64,000 nt of DNA from an uncultured Candidatus Saccharibacteria bacterium (GCA_964521095.1 CAZFPJ010000001.1:132149-196148); one strand, 5' to 3'. Shown: positions 26,650 through 27,084, counted from the stretch's first letter. Numbers and translations are program-made. The notes: generated by a model not told the origin, from the letters alone.

Positions 26650-27084
26650 TTATAGCTCTTCTGAGTCAAATACACTCGTACTGTCTCGTCCGTTTAAATA
26701 TCTTTTATAATCTTCTGCCAATAACTTGGTAAATCCATCAGTTGAAACAGCAAGCTCTTTGTAGTCTACATCGCTTCGGTCGTCAAATACCGATGCAGGT
26801 AGCTCTGCAGAGGCTAGGTCATCATATATTAAATCTTTTGCTACCTTCGCTGTATCCGGAGAAGTAGTCTGCAAATTATCTAGCCCAATAGCCATGCTAG
26901 CAACTTCTGTTCTGGCTAATACTAGATCTGGATAGGGTATAACCCACACATCCTCGCCAAGAAATAGCTCATGCTTATTGGCCATGTCCTTCATTACAAT
27001 ATTAGCTACAGCCAAAGCGGCAGCCTCTGCAATCTCTTCTTCAGGGTTAAATTCACCATTAAATGGAGCTTCGTGATTCCTCAT
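26650..27084 (-). CDS. hypothetical acidic protein embedded between atpG and atpD
   Basis: 144 aa. Its start overlaps the atpG stop (ATGA) and it ends 12 nt before the atpD start. No similarity to known ATP synthase subunits recognised. Confidence 0.45.

Follow-up and report, generated by a model that had tools for sequence, protein, structure and literature searches.

ORF144 in the atp operon of the window

The window, a 64,000-nucleotide stretch of DNA from a Saccharibacterium (TM7), carries an atp operon on the minus strand in the order ATPase_gene1 protein (31549-31824), atpB, atpE, atpF, atpH, atpA, atpG, ORF144, atpD and atpC. All eight canonical subunits, together with the ATPase_gene1 protein, are already encoded by the other genes of the operon. 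The gene for F1 alpha (atpA, 27955..29490, minus strand) is separated from atpG by a 4-nt gap, and the atpA-atpG slot is empty here. The upstream flank of ORF144 is atpG (F1 gamma, 289 aa, 27081..27950, minus strand), which matched PF00231 over positions 2-285 of the 285 in the profile (E 2.3e-85). The downstream flank is atpD (F1 beta, 457 aa from the ATG, 25262..26635, minus strand), with matches to PF00006, PF02874 and PF22919. The last gene, atpC (F1 epsilon, 24837..25265, minus strand, PF02823), overlaps the atpD stop codon by 4 nt, and the atpD-atpC slot is likewise empty. The C-terminal tail of the epsilon subunit encoded here (24837-25265) is strongly basic.

Directly downstream of atpC lies a 351-aa ORF (23690-24745, minus strand) that matched no Pfam or NCBIfam profile. 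Homologues were found in the same position in L003 (54%) and in L013, L026, L046, L059, L063 and L078 (about 35-38%), so that the ORF appears to be a conserved, uncharacterized companion of the atp operon. A gene on the plus strand (20495-23710) converges on the atp cluster; it encodes a 1071-aa AddA/PcrA-like helicase of the UvrD type whose C-terminal domain is a PDDEXK nuclease, and L003 and L083 have this neighbour too.

ORF144 (26650..27084, minus strand; 144 codons, 144 aa) was delimited from the sequence and from the ORF list. It begins at the atpG stop codon and ends just ahead of atpD. Its ATG (27084-27082) overlaps the TGA of atpG (27083-27081) in an ATGA tetranucleotide (27081..27084, minus strand), a termination-reinitiation junction, and its own stop codon is TAA (26652-26650). 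The spacer between this stop and the ATG of atpD (26636..26649, minus strand; 14 nt) carries the atpD Shine-Dalgarno sequence, GGAGG at 26645-26641, 5 nt upstream of the ATG. The latter (26635-26633) is the start codon that aligns with those of related atpD genes (MAQ...). The original prediction had described an intact ORF on the same strand with an ATGA overlap on the atpG stop, and both can be read directly from the minus strand. It had also placed the end of the ORF 12 nt before atpD; the short spacer was confirmed and the figure was corrected, to 14 nt for the ATG (or 11 nt for an in-frame TTG of atpD).

The protein is acidic, as had been proposed (pI 4.18, net charge -18). A slot devoid of an independent promoter had been proposed as well, and the searches agreed with this: no convincing promoter or terminator was detected in the slot, and none beyond chance, and a search of the slot against Rfam gave no match. 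Terminal repeats and target duplications were looked for around the slot and none was found. No paralogue of ORF144 is present within the 64-kb window, and the composition of the ORF is native-like. The frame stayed open in 7 of 200,000 shuffles (analytic estimate 4.8e-5), which puts chance openness at about 4e-5; the other five frames over the same interval contain 4-15 stop codons each. The possibility that ORF144 is a split fragment of the gamma or beta gene was rejected, as atpG and atpD are both full length when compared with Pfam.

In a word-indexed search of 5.8 billion proteins ORF144 matched only itself. An exhaustive HMMER search (1.84 billion representatives) combined with a profile search extended the family to six protein clusters: P0001 (that of the window), P0002, P0006, P0003, P0005 and P0007, the relatives being 26-41% identical to the window protein. 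All six members are encoded between atpG and atpD and none was found elsewhere in either the 5.8 billion or the 1.84 billion set, in agreement with the proposal of a lineage-restricted gene. Without exception they start on the atpG stop codon (ATGA or TAATG) and stop 14-18 nt ahead of atpD, and the five relatives have an AAGGA-type Shine-Dalgarno sequence for atpD in the same place as the GGAGG of the window. Most of the loci are in metagenome assemblies; P0001, P0003 and P0009 (the last belonging to a second slot family, see below) each recur on several independent contigs. Conservation in this position, by which the original prediction was to be judged, was only partly observed. In all five of the nearest relatives (atpG 78-80% identical) the slot contains an intact homologue that is subject to purifying selection. 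At the next level of relatedness (atpG about 61% identical) the slot ORFs are unrelated to ORF144, and 39% of junctions are empty.

The dN/dS ratio, calculated for those pairs in which dS was unsaturated, was 0.08-0.28 for the family and 0.02-0.09 for atpG; dS was saturated for most family pairs. The family alignment (A2) retains 20 invariant columns over deep divergence. An AlphaFold2 model computed from the six-sequence alignment reached a pLDDT of 82.4 and a pTM of 0.76. The predicted fold is mostly helical, with four long helices and one short helix (residues 14-37, 51-65, 68-74, 76-91 and 115-135), two short strands (residues 46-50 and 110-114), long crossover loops and disordered ends. 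The C-terminal tail (residues 139-144; 26653..26670, minus strand) reads FDSEEL here and FDIEL(L) in the relatives. F139 and D140 are invariant in the family and pLDDT is below 50 for residues 135-144; judged from the alignment, docking to a partner is a possible role of the conserved FD(I/S)E(L) tail. ORF144 is thus a genuine gene that is kept by purifying selection and encodes a folded orphan protein, since its frame has a low probability of being open by chance, its homologues are bound to the slot, its dN/dS is low and its AlphaFold2 fold is confident.

No relationship to a characterized protein was detected. ORF144 gave no more than noise in Pfam and NCBIfam (best E 0.014, well short of the cut-offs), the family matched nothing in PHROGs, and a PDB sequence-profile search with the family gave nothing at E<=10; the absence of recognizable similarity to an F1Fo subunit or assembly factor, noted in the original prediction, therefore extends to all four resources. 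Foldseek comparison of the model with the PDB gave a best E of 1.6 (TM <=0.26), and the fold searches of PDB and BFVD taken together remained at noise (E>=0.66, TM<=0.35). The top PDB fold matches, short-chain cytokines and MarR proteins, were discarded as not meaningful at these noise-level scores. Viral contigs scanned with the family profile contained no relative.

Occupants of the F1-gene junctions in Saccharibacteria

ATP synthase operons are a textbook case of fixed gene order. Related loci (170) were gathered with the window atpG, and 144 non-redundant atpG-atpD junctions were measured; the sampled loci are those most similar to the window atpG, which biases the survey toward its relatives. 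The gap between the two genes was at most 60 nt, i.e. direct, in 56 of the 144 junctions (39%), 61-120 nt in 5, and longer than 120 nt in 83 (58%; median 340 nt, maximum 1041 nt). The premise of the original prediction, that atpG is as a rule followed directly by atpD, accordingly fails in this phylum, where 83 of 144 junctions contain an insert. A published description of an atpG-atpD ORF in Saccharibacteria, or of this slot pattern, was not found in the literature.

Of the 83 long gaps, 81 are filled to at least 85% by one or two ORFs on the sense strand. The first slot ORF overlaps the atpG stop codon by 4, 8 or 1 nt in 67 of the 83 occupied slots (by 4 nt, as in ORF144, in 41), and the stop codon of the final slot ORF shares one base with the atpD ATG in 34. 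The C-termini of slot ORFs that are unrelated to one another often read ...GEQ, ...GEE or ...GGN (e.g. in L022, L061, L066, L133, L140 and L141); their final codons appear to encode the atpD Shine-Dalgarno sequence (GGAG), so that the protein tail and the ribosome-binding site are overprinted.

It could be that only the act of translation matters in the slot, keeping ribosomes on the mRNA and atpD coupled, and that the peptide has no function. Across the 83 occupied slots open frame and tight coupling are universal and sequence is not; many occupants are very short, and their C-termini are constrained by the atpD Shine-Dalgarno sequence (...GEQ, ...GEE). For ORF144 we regard this as very improbable, as the dN/dS of its family is not about 1 and the family combines 20 invariant columns with a confident globular AlphaFold2 model. 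The same explanation may apply to some short occupants elsewhere.

The 97 occupants of the atpG-atpD slot fall into 77 BLASTP clusters and range in length from 45 to 232 aa, many being of 45-70 aa. A Pfam match was obtained for only 2 of 78 scanned slot ORFs, both to the 23S_rRNA_IVP/bAvd family; PHROGs and NCBIfam added nothing beyond that family, and PADLOC, run on the 78 ORFs including ORF144, gave no hit at E<=0.01. The occupants have a median pI of 4.7, compared with about 8.3 for the long ORFs of the window, which serve as a crude background set. The two ORFs that fill the 1041-nt gamma-beta slot of L165 (L165:3864-4379 and L165:4379-4861) belong to the same BLASTP cluster, which points to a tandem duplication inside the slot. 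Long hydrophobic stretches give L049:4863-5066 (e.g. ILLLIGIIIIIVGGAFIWI), L082:6370-7206 and L162:5517-5822 the look, by eye, of membrane proteins; that of L082, a 278-aa ORF at the atpD-atpC junction, has several such stretches.

Seven atp junctions were surveyed with the same criterion, a gap longer than 120 nt. Such gaps were present in 1 of 67 atpB-atpE, 2 of 78 atpE-atpF, 4 of 101 atpF-atpH and 2 of 106 atpH-atpA junctions, and in 30 of 150 atpA-atpG (20%), 84 of 148 atpG-atpD (57%) and 25 of 94 atpD-atpC (27%) junctions. The Fo/stator junctions are therefore almost free of inserts (1-4%), and inserts are confined to the three F1-gene junctions. As at atpG-atpD, the gaps at atpA-atpG (occupied in L015, L018, L020, L022, L102, L103 and others) and at atpD-atpC (L016, L021, L030, L065, L156 and others) are usually filled by coupled sense ORFs, of which 76% have a pI below 5.5; over all three F1 junctions about 77% of occupants are acidic against a basic background. 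This shared acidity points to a shared selective filter or a shared type of function. The length of epsilon is nearly constant (139-148 aa) across the Saccharibacteria examined, with a median of 142 aa in genomes with an occupied slot and in genomes with an empty one.

A few occupants belong to known families. The atpA-atpG slot of L135 contains an in-line gene for a 74-aa protein with a heavy-metal-associated, metal-binding domain (HMA, CopZ-like; L135:2787-3011; PF00403, E 4e-13), and a diverged relative of it lies in the same place in L144 (L144:2699-3001). Members of the 23S-rRNA-IVS/bAvd-like four-helix bundle family, 52-60% identical to one another, are present at three junctions in different lineages: gamma-beta (L080:4903-5301 and L138:3867-4268), alpha-gamma (L143:2575-2949) and beta-epsilon (L148:2628-3044). 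Their distribution suggests that this gene moves between junctions. Genes for 23S rRNA intervening-sequence proteins of this kind (PF05635) are known to lie within loci that are very conserved and highly expressed. Although family members fill the atp slots of L080, L138, L143 and L148, ORF144 has no match to PF05635, PF22296 or TIGR02436, and its topology as predicted, with two short strands and long crossover loops, differs from theirs.

Turnover and probable exchange of slot contents

The probability that two occupied slots contain homologous ORFs falls with the distance between their atpG genes. Homologous ORFs were found in 8 of 10 occupied pairs at an atpG identity of at least 95%, in 7 of 34 at 80-90%, in 10 of 140 at 70-80%, and in almost none below 70%. 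Replacement is also seen between close relatives. L117 and L118 have 99% identical atpG genes and about 95% identical flanking DNA, yet the slot contains a single 84-aa ORF in one and two unrelated ORFs (123 and 153 aa) in the other; the similarity ends at the atpG stop codon and returns at the atpD ATG. The slot is occupied in L131 and empty in L145, with atpG 95% identical.

Within the ORF144 family, L003 and L087 are 92.8% identical at the DNA level in atpG and 94.3% in atpD; the slot ORF is 54.8% identical, and 44% at the protein level. Sliding identity between the two loci falls from 0.9-1.0 to 0.33-0.65 exactly over the slot ORF, with sharp edges. Alleles of the family are 42-45% identical between near-identical flanks, and the grouping of the alleles, (L003, L088) and (L087, L091), disagrees with that of the flanks, which unite L003, L087 and L088 and leave L091 outside. 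Such a pattern is a signature of allele exchange, or of long-lived allele classes between recombining flanks; recombination is here deduced from mosaic identity patterns in metagenome assemblies.

Mosaicism was also observed elsewhere in the operon. In L084 the Fo genes are much closer to those of the window (atpE 99%, atpB 89%; L084:531-1617 against window 30465-31552) than are the F1 genes (atpG 78%, atpA 89%), and the Fo genes of L003 are merely 58-64% identical to those of the window. These comparisons suggest recombination inside the atp operon between lineages.

In replacement-type flexible genomic islands, exemplified by O-antigen clusters and by strain-variable cassettes of other kinds, a hypervariable locus is bordered by conserved flanks. 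The ORF144 slot shares their main features: a fixed position between conserved genes, at which relatives have divergent alleles, unrelated genes or nothing, sharp homology boundaries, and disagreement between allele and flank. On this evidence it is a replacement islet with divergent or non-homologous content. It differs from the known islands in lying inside a single operon for a conserved machine and in its size (0.15-1 kb, one or two cistrons). Its occupants differ in that they have no promoter or terminator of their own, are translationally coupled at both ends, and are cytoplasmic-looking acidic orphans instead of surface-structure genes.

Alternatively, all occupants might be branches of one ancient family that shares a fold and a role (immunity-like or decoy) and that diversifying or frequency-dependent selection has driven beyond recognizable sequence similarity. 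The low identity of homologous alleles between near-identical flanks, the steep fall of detectable homology with atpG distance and the acidic composition common to the occupants would agree with such a history, as would a modest excess of weak phmmer matches (72, against 29 for reversed decoys, at E<=0.1). We nevertheless consider it improbable. A slot may contain one ORF or two, of between 45 and 232 aa, and some occupants belong to distinct known families (HMA, 23S_rRNA_IVP) or look like membrane proteins. The iterated A2 profile recruited no other occupants above reversed decoys, a profile of a second slot family (A4) likewise did not reach other occupants, and hhalign of A2 against A4 gave a probability of 0.1%. 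The model computed for a second slot family (L004-type, P0008/P0009), for which few sequences are available, had a pLDDT of 42.6, too low for a fold comparison. A recurring 'A-h-G-L-D/R' motif was considered as a mark of deep homology and rejected, since iterated HMMs performed no better than reversed decoys and hhalign was negative.

Active targeting of the atpG-atpD junction by a selfish mobile element, homing-type or transposon-borne, was also weighed. Presence/absence and replacement polymorphisms with exact boundaries, and a 23S-IVS-type gene at three different junctions, are features that such an element could produce, and conserved genes of CPR bacteria are known to carry insertions. 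The ORF encodes no domain of a nuclease, integrase or transposase and is not flanked by terminal repeats or target duplications. It has no relative in viral contigs or phage families, and its composition is native-like; we judge an element of this type to be extremely improbable. Phage morons offer a related comparison, being small, unrelated genes, mostly of unknown function, at the boundaries of a conserved syntenic array, whose content varies between close relatives. Morons belong to phage genomes and are typically equipped with a promoter and a terminator of their own. The ORF144 slot has no such signals and no phage relatives, and the array that hosts it is a cellular operon.

The role of ORF144

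The original prediction regarded ORF144 as an accessory subunit or regulator of the F1 head. One could envisage an accessory subunit, assembly helper or regulator, for example an acidic protein with gamma, beta or the basic C-terminal tail of epsilon as its binding partner, whose synthesis would keep pace with that of gamma through the coupling to atpG. All six family members sit strictly between atpG and atpD, and no member from another location turned up among 5.8 billion proteins; the family is under purifying selection and has a confident predicted fold. Inserts in saccharibacterial atp operons are found only at F1-gene junctions, and the occupants have an acidic character in common. Regulators of the F-ATP synthase such as the alpha-proteobacterial zeta subunit and the cyanobacterial AtpTheta are known. 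Like these and other helpers of the enzyme (the epsilon C-terminal domain, IF1, AtpI/AtpZ, Atp11/Atp12), ORF144 is small and mostly helical, is located in the atp cluster and would be made together with the F1 subunits.

The comparison with relatives did not support this view. The presumed partners are highly conserved (atpD 91% and atpA 90% identical in L003) and ORF144 is just 38% identical; alleles that lie between 93-94% identical atpG and atpD DNA are 44% identical at the protein level. Close relatives swap the slot ORF for an unrelated one or lose it, the junction is direct in 39% of cases, and the occupants include HMA and 23S-IVS/bAvd proteins, which have no evident connection with the ATPase. 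ORF144 is strongly acidic and resembles neither epsilon, zeta, IF1 nor Atp11/12 in sequence or fold, with no match in the PDB; epsilon has the same length whether the slot is filled or empty. As an F1Fo subunit or an AtpI/AtpZ-like protein it would be expected to match a profile and to be present wherever the enzyme is, and it does neither, being absent or replaced in close relatives (56 of 144 junctions are direct). An F1 accessory role is hence unlikely, though it keeps some weight, and ORF144 is probably not a stoichiometric F1 subunit.

We favour, with reasonable but far from complete confidence, the interpretation that ORF144 is an accessory cargo or passenger gene in an in-line cassette slot at the F1-gene junctions, the contents of which are exchanged by recombination. 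Most likely it is a dispensable, strain-variable passenger that borrows the expression of the operon. ORF144 would be a cistron of the atp mRNA, and ribosomes that end translation of atpG would probably restart at the overlapping ATG; atpD would then be initiated from its own GGAGG site, 14 nt past the ORF144 stop codon. The predicted product is small, globular and helical; it is strongly acidic, and its disordered ends are conserved. ORF144 is one allele family among very many slot occupants, with slot use decreasing in the order gamma-beta, beta-epsilon, alpha-gamma.

Contents of the slots would be gained, lost and swapped between lineages through homologous recombination, with the conserved atpA, atpG and atpD sequences acting as recombination arms and the DNA being taken up by natural transformation. 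Saccharibacteria are naturally competent and carry out homologous recombination with arms of about 1 kb (PMC10633639). Nearly all of the inserts observed consist of open, coupled sense frames that span the distance between the preceding stop codon and the following start codon. Any other arrangement would presumably disturb expression of the next F1 gene, and we infer from this a selective filter for open, coupled frames. The dispensability of all F-ATP synthase components in the cultured relative Southlakia epibionticum (PMC10633639) may be the reason that inserts are tolerated in the operon. That slot occupants need not serve the ATPase is illustrated by the 23S-rRNA-IVS/bAvd proteins and by the HMA domain ORF at atpA-atpG, which have no evident link to it. 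As a best guess at its activity, ORF144 might bind a basic partner, or act as a decoy for one, through its acidic surface and the conserved FD(I/S)E(L) tail.

The distribution of inserts counts against a passenger gene, as a pure hitch-hiker model does not predict inserts at F1 junctions only. Conserved recombination arms alone are insufficient as an explanation, since the delta-alpha junction also borders the conserved atpA and yet is empty. Plain hitch-hiking does not account for the common acidity of the occupants either. Inserts restricted to the F1 genes could reflect an F1-related role. In an extended form of this idea, which we hold to be rather improbable, the small acidic slot proteins at the three F1 junctions have diversified in an arms race and modulate F1 by binding to it, or act as decoys. 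Protection of the rotary ATPase against inhibitors made by the host or by phages would be one conceivable task, and adjustment of its reverse, ATP-hydrolysing mode to the host another. Genes for an accessory layer, hypervariable and swapped horizontally, would then be interspersed with those for the core subunits of a conserved machine, and ORF144 would be one module of this layer, with a fold not seen before.

Unrelated, translationally coupled orphan genes lie between the F1 genes in over half of the Saccharibacteria sampled, a major uncultivated phylum, and these genes are swapped among close relatives. If the genes are passive hitch-hikers, as in the interpretation that we favour, the slot would be a route by which CPR 'dark-matter' genes gain expression and spread by transformation, and a warning against equating operon membership with functional association. 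If instead the F1-only distribution is functional, it would amount to a variable accessory layer on a universal enzyme whose own role in these organisms is unclear. On either reading, the slot is a natural and well-bounded site at which to measure the birth, turnover and selection of orphan genes.
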